Below are positions 2,991 to 9,933 of a stretch of DNA of 32,810 nt, piece after piece. The position numbers and the translations under genes are program-made. The notes beneath the pieces were generated by a model that saw only the letters and a program-made list of their open reading frames with translations, was not told where the DNA came from and did not search any database. The DNA comes from a bacterium (lineage in GTDB: Bacteria; Patescibacteriota; JACMRA01): NCBI GenBank assembly GCA_043765655.1, contig JAYUIW010000015.1, forward strand, positions 1 through 32,810, given 5' to 3'. How positions within the stretch are numbered: the stretch's first letter is position 1; the number at the start of each line of letters is the position of its first letter.

Positions 2991-4187
2991 TTATTTTCCA
3001 AAAAGATTTTTGAAGAAGTTCGAAACATTATTTGAAACCTGCGAACCTTTTTTAGAAGCGTAATTCGCCATCTTTACCAGTGGATTATTACTTATATATC
3101 TACCACGTCTTTTAATAAAAATTTCTTTAGTCAAAACGTCTTCACCTCGTTTTTTCTTGTCAAACTTGGTACGATAGTCAGCAATAGCTCCCTCAAAATT
3201 AGTATATTTATCGTATTTAACACCAGTCAGATCGGCACCACGCAAATCAGCACCTTTAAGATTAGCACCTTTAAGATTAGCACCTCTAAAGATTGATTCG
3301 CTACAAAATGTATCTTGTAAATCAGCCTGACGAAAGTCAACACAATTTAAGTCACTTCGTCGTAGTTTTGCCCCTCTAAGACAAGCTTGTAATAATTTTG
3401 CAGACTGTAAATTAGCTCCATCTAAACAAGCACCAGTTAGATCAGCTTCCATAAAATTAGAATATTCCAAATTTGCTCTAATAAAATCGACTTCTCTAAC
3501 TTTAGCTTGACTAAAATTACAAAGGATTAAGCTACAACACTCAAAACTTGAACAAGACAAATCACTGTTCTCAAAACTTATTTTTCTAAATGTATATCCT
3601 CTAAAATCTCTATCTGTTGCAGTTTGATTTGAACCATTAGTAATATGCAACTTAGAATCTTTAGAACCTCTTTTGTTAAACTCAGAATTATCTTCTTCAC
3701 TGTATTTAGTAGTTTCTGCACTAATATTAATAGTTTGAGCTGGTTCAACTTTTGATTCCACTTCAGATAAAATCGGCCCGAACTTCAAAGATTGAATATC
3801 TATAGCATTAACTAAAGCAGCATTACGCTTTTCTAATTCTTGAATTTTAAAGTTGCTAATATTGTTTATTTCATATCTTTCTATAGGCTTACCTTCCTTA
3901 TCAAAAGATAAGTATAATTCAACACTTGAAGATTGTGAAGGTCGAATTTCATCAAAAACTAACATATCTAAAGTAGGTTTAGAATAACTGTCGCTAAAGC
4001 TACGCTTAGCTAAATTTGTAGCAAAATTACCTTTATCTGAATTTAGGTCTTCAGCTGTAATAATCGGCATTCCGACTGGTTCTTTACTTTTTTTAGATGT
4101 TAAAGAAGCTTGTTCTGATGTAATTTTTACTGTAGGTAATCTTGATTTAGATTGTTCTTGTTGTTGTTTTGGTTGTTCTGATGACAT
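2991..4187 (-). CDS. Pentapeptide repeat protein
   Basis: Many A(D/N)LxG-type repeats, e.g. GANLKGANLKGADLRGADLTG, after a low-complexity N-terminus. Confidence 0.9.
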   Translation of the reverse strand: MSSEQPKQQQEQSKSRLPTVKITSEQASLTSKKSKEPVGMPIITAEDLNSDKGNFATNLAKRSFSDSYSKPTLDMLVFDEIRPSQSSSVELYLSFDKEGKPIERYEINNISNFKIQELEKRNAALVNAIDIQSLKFGPILSEVESKVEPAQTINISAETTKYSEEDNSEFNKRGSKDSKLHITNGSNQTATDRDFRGYTFRKISFENSDLSCSSFECCSLILCNFSQAKVREVDFIRANLEYSNFMEADLTGACLDGANLQSAKLLQACLRGAKLRRSDLNCVDFRQADLQDTFCSESIFRGANLKGANLKGADLRGADLTGVKYDKYTNFEGAIADYRTKFDKKKRGEDVLTKEIFIKRRGRYISNNPLVKMANYASKKGSQVSNNVSNFFKNLFGK

Positions 4188-4776: not shown

Positions 4777-4891
4777 ATTATTAGGTGTGTTATGTTAGAA
4801 TCTATGGTTTGATTTTGGGTTTTAATTTTATATTTGTATTAACTTAGAAAGTTACAGTTTTCATATTATTCAAAAAGCATTTGTAAAAATT

Positions 4892-5836
4892 TTATCCTCC
4901 ACAACTACTTTTGTCTAGTTTGACCATGTTCTTGAATCTTGCCTGAATCTGATCTGCAGTTGGCTCTGTAGGTTGCACGAATATTACAACATCTCCAAGA
5001 AAATTATTAATACTTTTGAGCTCTTGACCAGTTACTGGATCGAGTTGTGGCTGTGTTGAAGAGTCGTTACCAAAAGAACTATTGGAACTTGTATTGTCAA
5101 CAATTTTGTTATTTAGACGCTCAGTATTTTTTTGTTGTCCGATTTCGATAAGATGTTTTTGAGCTTCGGCGTCGGTTGTGTGTTCCACTTCATTGTGAGC
5201 TAGAACTTTTATACTTGTCATAATATCACCAAAGCTTTCCAAAGCTCCATAGCGTTGAATGTCCTTGCGAACTTGGGATTCTATACCAAAAAATTGTTCA
5301 AAACTATTGTCTTTAAAATTATCAAATGTCTTTTTCTCAAAGCTCCAGTCTCCAGTCGCATTCCCTAAGCTATCCAAATTTTCTTTGCCAGTATAAATCC
5401 AAAATTGATCTTCTGATCTTGGCTTTGGAAGATCTTTACCATAGATCGGTACAGGTGTAACGCTGGGCAAAGAGTCTAACTTGAATCCCATATAGCCATC
5501 TAACCCGCCAATGTAGTTTAAGCCATAAAATTTTAGGAACTGTCCACCTGTGACATTAGCCCAGTGAAGATGTTGATAGTCTGGCTTGTTGTCATGGAAG
5601 TGCAATGGCGATGTCGTCAAAGATCCGTTACAAATATCTTTTGTATAGTCTGTCTGATATCTAGGCGAGCCAAAATCCTCTTCTTGTCCATTAAAGACGT
5701 ACTTAATCCTAAAATGTGCATGATCTTGAGTGGGAAAGGCAATATTTTCTTTGGATAATCCATAGCGAAGAGTTAGATATGTTGCACTAAGTATGAATAT
5801 AATTATTAGGAGTAATGCGGTAATTTTTTTAAACAT
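4892..5836 (-). CDS. Secreted/membrane-anchored His-rich hypothetical protein
   Basis: N-terminal hydrophobic segment; DHAHF, LHFHD and HLHW motifs; C-terminal CGG. Confidence 0.6.
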   Translation of the reverse strand: MFKKITALLLIIIFILSATYLTLRYGLSKENIAFPTQDHAHFRIKYVFNGQEEDFGSPRYQTDYTKDICNGSLTTSPLHFHDNKPDYQHLHWANVTGGQFLKFYGLNYIGGLDGYMGFKLDSLPSVTPVPIYGKDLPKPRSEDQFWIYTGKENLDSLGNATGDWSFEKKTFDNFKDNSFEQFFGIESQVRKDIQRYGALESFGDIMTSIKVLAHNEVEHTTDAEAQKHLIEIGQQKNTERLNNKIVDNTSSNSSFGNDSSTQPQLDPVTGQELKSINNFLGDVVIFVQPTEPTADQIQARFKNMVKLDKSSCGG

Positions 5837-5996
5837 ATTGAAGTAAAATTAGGTTTTTGATAAAAGTTAAAAATTGGGTTAAAAATTAGTCTAAATTAGG
5901 GAGCTAAAAATGTTATAAATACTAAAATATATAATGTCTATACTATCCTTAAATTATATTAATATTGTATTTTTTGTGCAAGCCCCAAAATATTTT

Positions 5997-6025
5997 TTGA
6001 CAAGCAAGCATAATTCAAGTAACCT
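5997..6025 (+). promoter_or_regulatory. sigma70-type promoter of the typA fragment (leaderless position)
   Basis: TTGACA 5997-6002, 17 bp, TAACCT 6020-6025, ATG at 6033. Confidence 0.65.
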
Positions 6026-6032
6026 CAAGAGT

Positions 6033-6785
6033 ATGACTGATAATATCAAAAAGCACCTCCAAAACCTTGGAATATATACCGATGTAAAGGCAATCCTCAA
6101 ACAGCTCGCCGACGGCAAAACTGATCCCAAAACTGCAAGCCAAACAATTACAACCATGATCAACGACTCGTTCAAAGTCGATACTGGAGTTAATCCGCTA
6201 CAAATTTTGGTTCTAGCGCTCAACTATGATTCATTCAAAGGAAAAATGGGTGTTGGAAAAATTATCAATGGAAGCATAACCAAGGGACAATCTATCATTG
6301 CGATCCAAGAAAACGGCATTAAAAAAGGTCGTGCTAGCTCAATTTTAACTTTTGATGGTCTCAACCTCAAAGAAATTGAATCTGCTCAAGTTGGTGAAAT
6401 CGTTATGGTTGCTGGATTAGAAGATGTAACTATTGGAGATACAATTACCACGCCAGAATTCAACAAACCCCTTCCAAGAATCAAAGTTGATGAACCAACG
6501 CTGCGAATTGTAATCGGTGTAAATACTTCTCCATTCTCTGGTAAAGAAGGCAAGCTCGGAACTAGCCGCCAAATTCGCGAAAGATTAATTAAGGAATTAG
6601 AAACTAATATTGCCCTTAGAGTAGAAGATTATCCAGGCTCAGCCGATAAATTCGTAGTCAGTGGTCGTGGAGAACTTCACCTTAGCGTACTAATCGAGAC
6701 AATGCGACGCGAAGGATTCGAACTCGAAGTCAGTAAGCCACAAGTAATCTTCAAAACAGCCTTAGAATTAGGTATTGAAATATAA
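6033..6785 (+). CDS. typA: TypA/BipA fragment with domains II and III only, plus a ~45 aa foreign N-terminal extension
   Basis: PLQILV..LNYDSFKG, IGDTI, VDEPTL, VNTSPFSGKEGK..TSRQIRERL, SGRGELHLSVLIETMRREGFELEVSKPQVI; no G domain or C-terminal domains; ATG 6033 preferred over 5934 because of promoter position. Confidence 0.88.
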   Translation: MTDNIKKHLQNLGIYTDVKAILKQLADGKTDPKTASQTITTMINDSFKVDTGVNPLQILVLALNYDSFKGKMGVGKIINGSITKGQSIIAIQENGIKKGRASSILTFDGLNLKEIESAQVGEIVMVAGLEDVTIGDTITTPEFNKPLPRIKVDEPTLRIVIGVNTSPFSGKEGKLGTSRQIRERLIKELETNIALRVEDYPGSADKFVVSGRGELHLSVLIETMRREGFELEVSKPQVIFKTALELGIEI

Positions 6786-6821
6786 ATAACTGATAATTTT
6801 TTTATAAGCTCTGTGAATAAC

Positions 6822-6848
6822 ATCTCCACAATTATGGAGGTTTTTTTT
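6822..6848 (+). terminator. Intrinsic terminator after the typA fragment
   Basis: CTCCA-caatta-TGGAG stem followed by G and T8. Confidence 0.7.
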
Positions 6849-6928
6849 GATTAATAAAATTATTGATAAATCAACATAACTTTTAACTTTTGCAAAACAC
6901 CCCTTGAAAAGAACATATATCTATTTCG

Positions 6929-6990
6929 CTAAAGACATTCTAATTAATTACTCCTTGATAAAGGGGTGAGCCGAATGGCTCGGAGATTTT
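6929..6990 (+). repeat. REP-like family C element
   Basis: CTAAAGACATTCTAA...AAGGGGTGAGCCGAATGGCTCGG shared with 24748-24855 and 20866-20907. Confidence 0.85.
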
Positions 6991-7212
6991 ATATTAAAAG
7001 ATAAATACTGAAATAGGTAAAAATTACTTCAAATTAAATTATTTTTGGGTCAAAGCCGGTCAAAGTTAACATAGATTCAAGTATAAAATAGTTCCTTTAT
7101 CTTTTATTTAACTTCGTATAAAAAATATTAATCATAGCCAACAAAGTCCAAAATAATATTAAAAACCTTCAAAATACTAAGTTGAATTGAAGTTGAATTG
7201 AAGTTAATCTCT

Positions 7213-7241
7213 TTGACAAAGTTAACAGAATAAAGTATTAT
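7213..7241 (+). promoter_or_regulatory. sigma70 promoter of rnpB
   Basis: TTGACA 7213-7218, 17 bp, TATTAT 7236-7241; P1 begins at 7249. Confidence 0.8.
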
Positions 7242-7248
7242 TCCAGTA

Positions 7249-7601
7249 TGGTTAGTTGGACGATGGCTGTTGCAAAACAGAGGAAAGTCGGAACACTAGT
7301 GGACTGCAAAGTTCATTGTGAGTAGCGGGCTTTAATCCGCCGTGGGTAACCATAGGGAGCCCAAAATCGTCAAGAAAGTAAGGCTGAAAAGTGCAACAGA
7401 AAACATACCGCCTTAGACCGTCAAAAGTTCAAGGTAAGGGTCAAAACGTGAGGTAAGAGCTCACGCACGAAGGCTGGCAACAGTCCGTGTGGCAAACCCT
7501 ACTCGGTGCAACCTCAAAAAAGGTAGAGGGCAAAGATAAATCATCGTCTCTGCGATCGTCAAAACATCGTAACAGACAGAATTCCGCTTATAGACTAACC
7601 A
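7249..7601 (+). ncRNA. rnpB: RNase P RNA
   Basis: GAGGAAAGTC, AGTGCAACAGAAA, GGTAAGAG, GGCAAACC, ACAGAATTCCGCTTA; P1 TGGTTAGTT/GACTAACCA; P2 GACGATG/CATCGTC. Confidence 0.96.
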
Positions 7602-7617
7602 AATCAAAATAAATCAA

Positions 7618-8521
7618 ATGTCTGAGCAAATCAAAGAAAAATTATTTAATAGAAGGGAAATATTAAGTGTTTTATTATTGCTAACATCTTTTCCAAGTCT
7701 ACTTTCAAATATTTTTTTTAAAATAGTACTAAAAAAACCAGAATTATTAAGAGGTATTAAAGATAAAATACCCAAGTCTAAAACTGAATCAAAAGTTGAA
7801 GATTCTGTATTCTTGTATAACGGTGCTAAAAATTACTTTAATATTGAAGTAGAGCATGACGATAAAAAATTAGAAAAACAAATTGAATTAATCTATCTAC
7901 AACTATCAAAATCAGATGTAATATTCATTGAAAGTACCTGGGATGAATTCCCAGATATAAAATCTACATATTTTTCAAAGCTTTCTAGAATTCTTAGAAG
8001 TCAAGATAAAAAAGTTATTGATTTTGATCCTCAAAACATATTTTTTAATCAATCAGTCACAAATGTTGGAGTTTTTTTACAATTACCACTTTATTTAAAG
8101 CTAGAGTTTACATTAGTTGTTGACGAAAAATCTGAAAATTAGACTAATTTAGAAAAAATATTAGAAACAACTCCAAAAAAAATTTTGGGACAATTAGCTC
8201 TTTTATTTGGAATTTCAAACTATGGAATATTTTCAACAGCTGGAACTATTAATTTACTTTCAAGAGATATTTTGGGTACAAATGAATTATTAATAAATAG
8301 TGATATGTCATATACAAGCGATGGAAGAAGTGTTCTTATGGCATATAAAATTTTGGAATATTGCAAAAAAACCAAATAAAAAAATAGCTTCTATTAGTAG
8401 ATACGCTCACGCAAAGCTTATTGGTTATTATCTCAAAAGAGAAAATTTGTTAGAACTAAAACGTAAAATTTATTCAATAATGTATTTTATGTATATTAGA
8501 AATAATTTTAATCAAGAATAA
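7618..8521 (+). pseudogene. Disrupted gene, possibly TraB/GumN-like
   Basis: In-frame TAG at 8140-8142 with the frame open afterwards, then a frame change near A7 at 8365-8371; motifs DVIFIE, DGRSVLMA, SRYAH. Confidence 0.55.
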
Positions 8522-8559: not shown

Positions 8560-9933
8560 ATGAAAAAAATAAATATAAATAAAATAATAATTACCCTAAC
8601 TCTTCTTGGTTTTGTGGCTAGTGGGGGTTTTTTTGACATTAATTTTGGAATTAGTATTATTGCCCAAAATAGCGATAGGTATTCTAGTGAAATCAGCCAA
8701 CTAGAAAAACAAAAAGACCAAATTAACTCACAGATTAATAATATTCAAAGAGAGCTAGAATATACAGAAGTTAGAATTACCTCGCTTAGCCAAGAAGTTG
8801 CAACATTCCAATCCGAAGCTTCTAGATTCGAAGCGATTTCTGCACAGGCTCTTAACCTTGCCCAAGAATACCAAAAGCAAAAAGTACAATTAGAAATCGA
8901 AATTGCCAAACTGGAAGACGACATCAGCAAATTATACAAGGAACTACAGATTCTTAGTCTTACGAGTCCGATTCAGATGGTTTTTAGTTCTAAGAATATC
9001 GGAGAATTCATAACCAAAATCTACTCCAATTCCAATCTCCAAAAAGAAGCCGACCAAATCCAAAAAAGCCTCCAAATTGCTAAAGTTGAAAAAGAACGAA
9101 GCATACAATCACAGCTTGAGGCCTCTAACAATGCTCAAAATGCCAAGTATATCGCCAGTAGCAATCGAGACAAAGCTGCAGACCTACTTCAACGAACCAA
9201 AGGCGACGAAGCCAAATACCTCGAGATCAAGAATGCTCAACAAGCCGAAGTTCAAAAAATCAACGAACAACGCTCAATCTTCATAGAAAGAGCCAAAAAA
9301 GAAGAAGAGCAAGAGCGCCAACGTCAAGAAGAACTCAGAAAACAAGCCGAATCTGCAAGATTAGCCGCACTAGAATCAGCCAAAAAATTCAATAATCCAA
9401 CTGGCAAAAATAACAGTTATACTCCAGGTTACATTAGCCCAACAAGTACTAACTTCAACGATTATTCTGATAGTTCTAGCTGTAGCTACCAAGCTTATGA
9501 TACGCTCAATATTCCTACAGGCTACTTTGCAACACCTACGACTGGTAACTTCGAGCGGGAATTCGGATATTGTAATCATGACGGAATTGATGTCAGTAAT
9601 GGAACTGGAACTCCAATTGTTGCTGCAGCTGATGGAACGGTGTTCTTTTCTGGATATTCATTTGATGGGTATGCCAATATGGTTCAACTCAAGCACACTC
9701 TTCCTGGAGGCAAAATCGTCTATACATTATACGCTCACATGGCAACAGAATCGACACTCAAAGTTGGAGATAGCGTCTCAAAAGGGCAATTCATCGGTCC
9801 AATGGGTTCGACTGGAAATTCTACAGGACCTCACCTTCACTTCATGATAATTGATGGGACTAACTACGCAGGTCCTGGTTGCGTATGGGGACTATCCAAG
9901 TGCTACAAACCGCGAGATTACGTTAAATTTTAG
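8560..9933 (+). CDS. Coiled-coil plus M23 peptidase (EnvC/CwlO-like murein hydrolase)
   Basis: Signal/TM segment, long coiled coil, HDGID, YAHM, GSTGNSTGPHLHF. Confidence 0.92.
   Translation: MKKININKIIITLTLLGFVASGGFFDINFGISIIAQNSDRYSSEISQLEKQKDQINSQINNIQRELEYTEVRITSLSQEVATFQSEASRFEAISAQALNLAQEYQKQKVQLEIEIAKLEDDISKLYKELQILSLTSPIQMVFSSKNIGEFITKIYSNSNLQKEADQIQKSLQIAKVEKERSIQSQLEASNNAQNAKYIASSNRDKAADLLQRTKGDEAKYLEIKNAQQAEVQKINEQRSIFIERAKKEEEQERQRQEELRKQAESARLAALESAKKFNNPTGKNNSYTPGYISPTSTNFNDYSDSSSCSYQAYDTLNIPTGYFATPTTGNFEREFGYCNHDGIDVSNGTGTPIVAAADGTVFFSGYSFDGYANMVQLKHTLPGGKIVYTLYAHMATESTLKVGDSVSKGQFIGPMGSTGNSTGPHLHFMIIDGTNYAGPGCVWGLSKCYKPRDYVKF

Follow-up and report, generated by a model that had tools for sequence, protein, structure and literature searches.

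GTPases of the EF-G/LepA/TypA kind are viewed as one-chain proteins that work on the ribosome through movements of their domains relative to one another. Against this background, a short gene at positions 6033-6785 of the Patescibacteria contig JAYUIW010000015.1 (assembly GCA_043765655.1; its 32,810 nucleotides are referred to here as the window) raises a simple question. The gene encodes domains II and III of TypA, also called BipA, and nothing further of that factor; is it a working gene, and if so, where is the rest of the protein? We followed the fragment through the genome that holds the window (G000, a 1.05-Mb assembly in 84 contigs, 74% complete) and through its relatives. Three genes under selection jointly encode every TypA domain, namely one for the G domain (P1), the window gene for domains II and III (P2), and one for domain V plus the C-terminal domain (CTD; P3). 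On comparative grounds we consider it likely that P2 is the functional middle subunit gene of a TypA/BipA GTPase that is encoded in three genes and whose products would reassemble non-covalently.

A stand-alone gene for TypA domains II and III

The open reading frame (ORF) listed for the locus spans 5934-6785 on the forward strand. We place the start at its second ATG, at 6033, since all orthologues in the genus share the beginning MTD(N/H)(I/L)KK(H/Q)LQNLG, whereas the DNA further 5′ is unrelated among them. The resulting coding sequence (6033-6785, forward strand) specifies 250 amino acids (aa) and ends with a TAA stop codon at 6783-6785. Its product can be divided into an N-terminal head (residues 1-53; 6033-6191), which is a lineage-specific three-helix module without a TypA counterpart; TypA domains II and III (residues 54-242; 6192-6758; positions 198-387 of the TypA profile TIGR01394); and a C-terminal tail, ALELGIEI, which replaces the linker between domains III and V with eight residues that likewise have no counterpart in TypA (6759-6782).

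The core matches TypA better than any paralogue. Against the NCBIfam model TIGR01394, residues 53-242 of P2 match positions 198-387 of 594 with 233.9 bits (E 2.8e-69), compared to 72.9 bits for EF-G, 36.6 bits for LepA, and 21.8 bits for tet_protect. A sequence search of the Protein Data Bank (PDB) returned only BipA entries at the top, with residues 54-241 of P2 aligning to residues 203-390 of Escherichia coli BipA (8ewh_A and 5a9v_A), a stretch that comprises domains II and III of BipA. Pfam places EF-G_D2/GTP_EFTU_D2 at residues 56-140 and EFG_III at residues 179-233, the latter with 22.2 bits and thus below its 27-bit cut-off. In the AlphaFold2 model, which was built on an alignment of 22 sequences (mean predicted local distance difference test score, pLDDT, 72.7), the core forms a beta-barrel followed by an alpha/beta domain. 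After the KPQVIFK motif, nine residues lead to the C-terminus, and the orthologues end similarly, in KT.(A/E)E(L/V).. followed by a stop codon. The preliminary description of this locus had proposed that the fragment runs from the boundary between the G domain and domain II (G|II) to just past domain III, and the profile and BipA coordinates bear this out, confirming a stand-alone gene for TypA domains II and III. By family criteria, P2 is a homologue of TypA without being a TypA itself. That is, P2 and its two partner pieces each miss the whole-protein cut-off of 757.3 bits when taken singly, and the domains, instead of residing in a single chain, are spread over three contigs as three ORFs that have their own start and stop.

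A promoter and a terminator had also been proposed, and the DNA contains matching sequences for both. A −35 hexamer, TTGACA, lies at 5997-6002, 36 nt before the ATG, and is followed after a 17-nt spacer by the −10-like hexamer TAACCT (TAnnnT; 6020-6025), 7 nt before the ATG. Downstream, an intrinsic-terminator-like hairpin of seven pairs and a loop of six (6822-6841), followed by eight T residues (whole element 6822-6849, forward strand), begins 37 nt past the stop codon; within 5700-7700, three terminator-like sites were found compared to 1.0 expected from shuffled sequence. A generic promoter scan did not list the P2 site because TAACCT matches TATAAT at only three of six positions. The layout nonetheless gains meaning from a genome-wide pattern: TTGAC[AC] occurs 35 to 39 nt before the first ATG in 101 of the 722 long frames of G000, forming a sharp peak, as opposed to zero to five frames at any other single distance between 6 and 60 nt, and a TAnnnT at a spacing of 16 to 18 nt accompanies it in 60 of these 101 frames. 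The same arrangement, TTGAC(A/C) about 36 nt before the ATG, is found at the P2 orthologues of two further genomes of the genus (G002 and G004), and it precedes P1 and P3 in every genome of the genus for which upstream DNA is available.

The position of the −10 hexamer implies that the P2 mRNA would be leaderless or nearly so. Shine-Dalgarno-like 4-mers precede just 14 of 724 long frames in G000. Combined with the TTGAC[AC] peak, their scarcity suggests that this organism starts many of its transcripts at or beside the ATG; in other words, leaderless mRNAs seem to be widespread.

The ends of P2 are not contig-edge artefacts, for an independently assembled contig of 6721 bases reproduces positions 4800-6982 of the window, with no difference in any of three DNA sequencing runs (all from one study, and two of them possibly from the source sample). 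No RNA run is listed as carrying sequence from positions 5600-7700.

Partner genes, distribution and the order of the breaks

If P2 is one part of a divided TypA, the missing parts should be encoded elsewhere in the genome. They are not in the immediate vicinity: neither flanking ORF (4892-5836, reverse strand; 7618-8142, forward strand) contains a Pfam family or a part of TypA, in keeping with the preliminary description. A TypA profile search of G000, however, returned three complementary matches on three contigs which tile TIGR01394 without a gap, as P1 covers positions 1-207 (281.5 bits; contig C75), P2 positions 198-388 (231.5 bits in this search), and P3 positions 389-594 (219.6 bits; contig C53). 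Their scores add up to 732.6 bits, compared to 781.7 to 809.1 bits for the intact TypA proteins of the family.

P1 (C75:9012-9701, reverse strand; 229 aa) consists of the G domain and a helical tail of about 26 aa, the tail beginning right after PTP, the residues from which the chain would normally continue into domain II. P3 (C53:12049-12714, forward strand; 221 aa) starts with MSKNSQTLYEP and comprises domain V and the BipA-specific CTD. Pfam agrees with this division, finding GTP_EFTU only in P1, and EFG_C together with BipA_C (PF21018, E 4.1e-41) in P3; the full set G-II-III-V-CTD is reached only by P1, P2, and P3 together. A search for a lone G-domain ORF and a domain V/CTD ORF had been suggested as a check on the idea that TypA comes in at least three pieces, and both ORFs are there. 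Across 31 stand-alone P1 sequences, the GTPase motifs G1 (AHVDHGKT), G3 (DTPGH), and G4 (NKID) do not vary. Profile searches of G000 and of the four other genomes of the genus turned up no intact typA. The remaining TypA-profile matches in G000 are EF-G (a 725-aa frame), a 407-aa frame which we take to be EF-Tu from its size alone, and two pieces of lepA.

How widespread is this arrangement? The family to which G000 belongs counts 26 species genomes, and one additional genome completes the order and class as covered in this analysis (27 genomes). Intact typA is present in 13 of the 26, whereas six carry the three-piece form, these being all five genomes of the window's genus (g1), in which individual pieces are missing or cut only at contig ends, plus G015 from one other genus. 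Sister genera have typA either intact or in two pieces. Two-piece forms come in two kinds: four genomes (G005, G022, G021, and G041) encode G, II, and III in one protein of 409 to 417 aa and domain V plus CTD in another of 210 to 214 aa, and one (G017) has a separate G domain (221 aa) and a II-to-CTD protein (461 aa). The last two genomes were left unclassed, with typA broken at contig edges in G006 and located on a 1159-base contig in G009. An example of the two-piece state is given by G021, which is a single, complete contig of 1.27 Mb with its typA pieces 670 bp apart, so in this genome the break is no effect of assembly. Metagenomes add 21 further clusters of P2 (237 to 303 aa, 67 to 89% identity, 98 to 100% coverage including the head), seven more P2 clusters with a second type of head, and 30 clusters of stand-alone P1 (225 to 247 aa, 71 to 89% identity, 97 to 100% coverage); some of the P1 and P2 clusters reside on contigs of 96 to 361 kb.

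The three pieces also bear the mark of selection. Ratios of nonsynonymous to synonymous divergence (dN/dS), estimated by the NG86 method and rough at this distance, range from 0.05 to 0.16 for each piece in all genus pairs with a defined dS (0.09 to 0.13 for P2), and all frames have stayed open even though dS between the same genomes is 1.2 to 3.9 or saturated. Codon comparison thus indicates that all three TypA pieces are kept by purifying selection. Taken together, complementary pieces, the lack of a detectable intact copy, purifying selection, and inheritance across species mark this as a split gene maintained by selection. The contrary possibility raised at the outset, i.e., that P2 is a recent partial duplicate of an intact typA, is not supported, for no intact copy turned up and the saturated dS speaks for old pieces.

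The coexistence of intact, two-piece, and three-piece forms in one family makes the order of events readable. For a tree of TypA, the pieces were aligned to a profile of intact relatives, the rows merged by genome, and the result analyzed in IQ-TREE under LG+C20+F+G4. All 10 genomes with a break between domains III and V (III|V) form one clade (ultrafast bootstrap, UFboot, 90; Shimodaira-Hasegawa-like approximate likelihood-ratio test, SH-aLRT, 88), while G017 falls into another (99/98), in which G012 and G019 have intact typA. A tree constrained to unite all genomes with a G|II break is worse by 45 log-likelihood units and is rejected by the approximately unbiased (AU) test (p-AU 0.00065); forcing only g1 and G015 together costs 2 units and is not rejected (p-AU 0.335). 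The tree fits a single origin of the III|V break and indicates two or more separate origins for the break at G|II. In the simplest history, the gene would have split at III|V once; G|II would have followed in one or two events within the resulting clade, and the line of G017 would have split at G|II on its own.

How the pieces may have come apart is illustrated by their spacing. In G021, the 670-bp gap holds one antisense ORF (L036 3045-3551, reverse strand; 164-168 aa) with no significant Pfam family, possibly the very insert by which the gene was interrupted. The two typA pieces of G022 are separated by six genes, and the window's genus has its pieces on different contigs. Such a series fits insertion into a linker followed by dispersal.

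One factor from three proteins?

Taken at face value, a translation factor that is normally made in one piece seems to work in these organisms as three parts. In the scenario we favor, the gene was split stepwise at two inter-domain linkers, presumably III|V first and G|II later; each typA gene would now be transcribed from its own TTGACA promoter of the leaderless type, about 36 nt before the ATG, and run to its own stop; and the three products would come together, without covalent links, as a TypA-like factor, whether ahead of ribosome binding or on the ribosome, which might itself template the assembly. In BipA-ribosome complexes (5a9z/5aa0), each BipA domain reportedly has a separate contact with the ribosome. 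The domain set G, II, III, V, and CTD is the same as in E. coli BipA (5a9v, 4zci, and 8ewh, the last annotated as "50S ribosomal subunit assembly factor BipA"). However, BipA is one chain of about 600 aa, whereas here we find three dispersed genes with a 53-aa head and a 26-aa tail added at G|II.

These additions deserve a closer look. AlphaFold2 predicts helices at residues 3-12, 15-26, and 32-46 of the head (pLDDT of the blocks, 74 to 88). Among 22 sequences, M1, T2, D3, K7, and L9 are invariant and nine more positions are at least 90% conserved; the tail of P1 has an invariant Phe preceded by a near-invariant Ala-Glu. Conservation is still lower than in the cores, since the fraction of sequences with the majority residue is 0.63 in the head and 0.66 in the tail versus 0.91 and 0.89 in the cores, and dN is 0.48 to 0.70 in the head compared to 0.10 to 0.21 in the core. 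With dN/dS of about 0.3 for the head and 0.14 to 0.57 for the tail where defined, that is, below 1, neither is free of constraint. The III|V junction, by comparison, carries only eight to nine and four to seven extra residues on its two sides. We propose that the head on P2 and the tail on P1 may help the right partners to pair, acting as putative docking elements. Partner finding would matter because the G domain of LepA is also free in the cell. A complex prediction for full-length P1 with the P2 head (residues 1-56), run without controls, gave interface (ipSAE) scores of 0.26 and 0.23, the mark being 0.32.

As to the origin of the head, the earlier suggestion of a SHOCT-like hairpin did not hold up: a Pfam search with residues 1-54 and E values up to 10 gave no match to the SHOCT profile, yielding only CEP76_N (E 0.02, under its cut-off). 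We also considered the head and tail as relics of a TypA overlap, i.e., a degenerate copy of the end of the G domain and a copy of the first strand of domain II, respectively, a reading that the searches do not support. While the HMMER alignments of the whole pieces to a profile of 11 intact relatives (602 positions) overlap at 189-218, heads or tails used alone fare no better than shuffled sequences, 16 to 189 out of 200 shuffles scoring at least as high. The g1-like and G015-like heads may be homologous, although the hhalign result is suggestive only (P 0.0057 over 38 columns, probability 6%). A search of the head against 1.84 billion representatives (E up to 0.001) returned two matches, both of them repeat proteins. 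In one, head residues 3-34 (6033-6134), which make up the first two helices, resemble the tetratricopeptide repeat (TPR) units of the TPR/CHAT protein P0238 in three stretches (E 6.4e-7, 34% identity); the other is a Listeria-Bacteroides-repeat protein. Because the Pfam TPR models do not match the head, we regard the TPR likeness as a lead only.

Several observations speak against a three-part TypA with docking sequences, at least in this simple form. With G000 only 74% complete, an intact typA that escaped assembly is conceivable, though such a copy would have to be absent from all five genus assemblies. The dN/dS values are rough owing to the saturation of dS and the fast evolution of head and tail. 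As for the history, the tree is that of TypA itself and no species tree, support for the III|V clade does not exceed 90/88, and the first tree was already known when the groups for the AU test were chosen. Head and tail change at three to five times the rate of the core. The split LepA and LigA of G000 (see below) get by nearly without extensions, which means that a split protein can persist in their absence. The TypA head and tail could instead be translated remnants of inserted DNA, with a capping role only.

Alternatively, the pieces could be functional but subfunctionalized, with P2 acting, for example, in ribosome binding or regulation and P1 as a free GTPase, such that they no longer make up one TypA. 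An own promoter and locus for each piece means that co-regulation is not needed; the head and tail are new sequence whose TypA ancestry is undetectable; and stand-alone G domains occur with several different types of tail. All of this would suit separate roles. Yet the three pieces are retained together wherever the assemblies allow one to see it, the core is as conserved as intact TypA, judging by the summed score of 732.6 bits versus 781.7 to 809.1, and the two-piece intermediates keep the complementary remainder. We therefore regard subfunctionalization as unlikely.

Far less probable is a covalent rejoining into a one-chain TypA by a split intein or by RNA trans-splicing. Split inteins are known, for example, from the DnaE protein of cyanobacteria, which is made by protein trans-splicing. 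There, too, the parts of one protein are encoded apart and carry added sequence where they are divided, and the heads and tails in our case occupy precisely the place, the G|II junction, at which intein halves would be expected. But Pfam detects no intein/Hint domain in P1, P2, or P3, and a 26-aa tail and a 53-aa head are too short for intein halves, which usually measure about 100 and 35 aa. Nor are the junction residues conserved in the required way, there being no conserved Cys or Ser at the start of the tail and no conserved His-Asn followed by Cys, Ser, or Thr at the end of the head. The few extra residues at III|V and a separate ATG and promoter for each piece argue in the same direction. 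For the RNA route, an Rfam search for group I and II introns in the window and around P1 and P3 found none, RNase P RNA being the sole match.

Equally remote is the idea of P2 as a decaying typA pseudogene fragment that is still open by chance. No piece attains the family cut-off alone, and EFG_III falls under its Pfam cut-off, as might be expected upon decay; on the other hand, dN/dS stays at 0.05 to 0.16 at saturated dS with open frames in all genomes of the genus, there are 21 related metagenome clusters, start, promoter, and catalytic motifs are conserved, and no intact copy was found that would make the fragments dispensable. Least credible of all is an artefact of assembly or binning, i.e., pieces from different organisms or misassembled contigs, as could be suspected from three contigs of an 84-contig, 74% complete genome, for both ends of P2 lie deep inside a contig reproduced without a difference in three runs, the pattern recurs in five genus genomes and G015 with a two-piece form on a single-contig genome of 1.27 Mb, and each piece has its own particular start, stop, and extension sequences.

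We thus return to P2 as the probable middle subunit of a three-gene TypA. Gene fission as such is known; our verdict is that a three-gene TypA represents a new form of it. The maintenance of TypA as three proteins by selection suggests that the covalent links between G and II and between III and V are dispensable. The intact, two-piece, and three-piece forms within one bacterial family constitute a natural experiment, in which one could test how the remaining domains are coupled to GTP hydrolysis by the G domain, whether the ribosome serves as an assembly template, and how docking sequences originate after a gene has been broken.

Other broken genes and the surroundings of P2

TypA is not the only broken gene in these genomes. 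The G|II boundary is also where its paralogue LepA (EF4) is divided in all 26 family genomes, with no intact lepA found; in four of them (G010, G024, G013, and G015), LepA is broken again after domain III, i.e., following the same three-part plan. Being family-wide, the LepA break is older than the TypA breaks. In G000, the lepA G domain (204 aa; C24:23920-24522, L042, reverse strand) and the II-III-V-LepA_C piece (419 aa; C72:3750-4970, L041, forward strand) are encoded almost without an added head or tail, unlike the pieces of TypA.

Similarly, the NAD-dependent DNA ligase gene ligA is distributed as four complementary pieces over four contigs of G000, covering profile positions 3-225 (C51:3661-4374), 216-381 (C50:3379-3876), 381-516 (C19:6395-6805), and 511-649 (C75:7986-8408). 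It is intact in none of the 26 family genomes and also split in G025, whereas it forms one frame in all four genomes inspected from other families of the phylum. The BRCT piece of ligA happens to adjoin the TypA G-domain gene on C75. The alanyl-tRNA synthetase (AlaRS) gene alaS is broken in G000 as well, into two pieces or more. Its catalytic piece (310 aa, profile 2-247; C24:24638-25537, reverse strand) adjoins the LepA G-domain gene; a second piece (357-aa frame, profile 257-691) lies at C56:2497-3561 (reverse strand), and a third, weaker match at C83:35015-35698 (forward strand). In contrast, secA, gyrA, rpoB, and leuS, which belong to five long genes named before looking, are intact in G000, as is the gene for EF-G, indicating that fission is selective and not genome-wide. 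The fifth, initiation factor IF-2, was not found in G000, where only paralogous G domains match TIGR00487 (at most 61.8 bits); in a genome that is 74% complete, this absence may be an assembly gap.

Considering these genes jointly, a broader reading can be sketched, in which the class repeatedly breaks selected essential multi-domain proteins at domain linkers and uses them as non-covalent assemblies. LigA would be in three to four pieces and AlaRS in at least two; in TypA and in LepA, separate and repeated events would have cut the same two boundaries, G|II and III|V; and the G|II cut in TypA would have created a three-helix head and a helical tail that serve as partner-specific docking sequences, keeping the TypA G domain off the LepA body. 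We offer this reading tentatively, as a possibility that we would not yet favor.

The closest precedent comes from the DPANN archaea. Nanoarchaeum equitans and other members of this group have split genes, for example those for alanyl-tRNA synthetase and reverse gyrase. There as here, essential multi-domain genes of ultra-small organisms with reduced genomes are broken at domain boundaries and dispersed, and alaS is affected in both. Different from DPANN, the present case concerns a bacterial lineage, the Patescibacteria, with a translational GTPase cut in three and with intact, two-piece, and three-piece states in one family. Split genes in the style of Nanoarchaeum thus also occur in ultra-small lineages of bacteria. 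Among the matches listed by full-text literature searches, no paper described a split TypA/BipA or LepA, a split ligase in Patescibacteria, or other split genes of that group. For surveys of gene presence, the practical consequence is that whole-protein cut-offs would call bipA, lepA, and ligA absent or partial in these genomes.

Within the window, the region around P2 holds some additional features. Upstream, a 398-aa pentapeptide-repeat protein is encoded at 2991-4187 (reverse strand), and on the other side a 457-aa protein with a coiled coil and an M23 peptidase domain at 8560-9933 (forward strand). Downstream of P2, Rfam identifies a bacterial class A RNase P RNA at 7248-7606 (forward strand; 137.3 bits, full model 1-367), preceded by a near-consensus promoter, TTGACA-17-TATTAT, at 7213-7241. 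As a further trait of the genome, TGA serves as the stop codon in only 46 of 722 frames of G000.

Finally, the stretch between the P2 terminator and the RNase P RNA contains a dispersed hairpin repeat (approximately 6916-7010; core 6961-6992, with the core hairpin TGAGCCGAATGGCTCG). It has 45 further blastn matches of 30 to 93 bp across the contigs of G000, and the matches listed include copies on the P3 contig, C53, and on three contigs with ligA pieces (C19, C50, and C51). The repeat looks like an element of the repetitive extragenic palindrome or miniature inverted-repeat transposable element (REP/MITE) type; a part in the rearrangements would be speculation. At this repeat, the depth of the contig rises from about 20 to 360-470, and independent assemblies break there.

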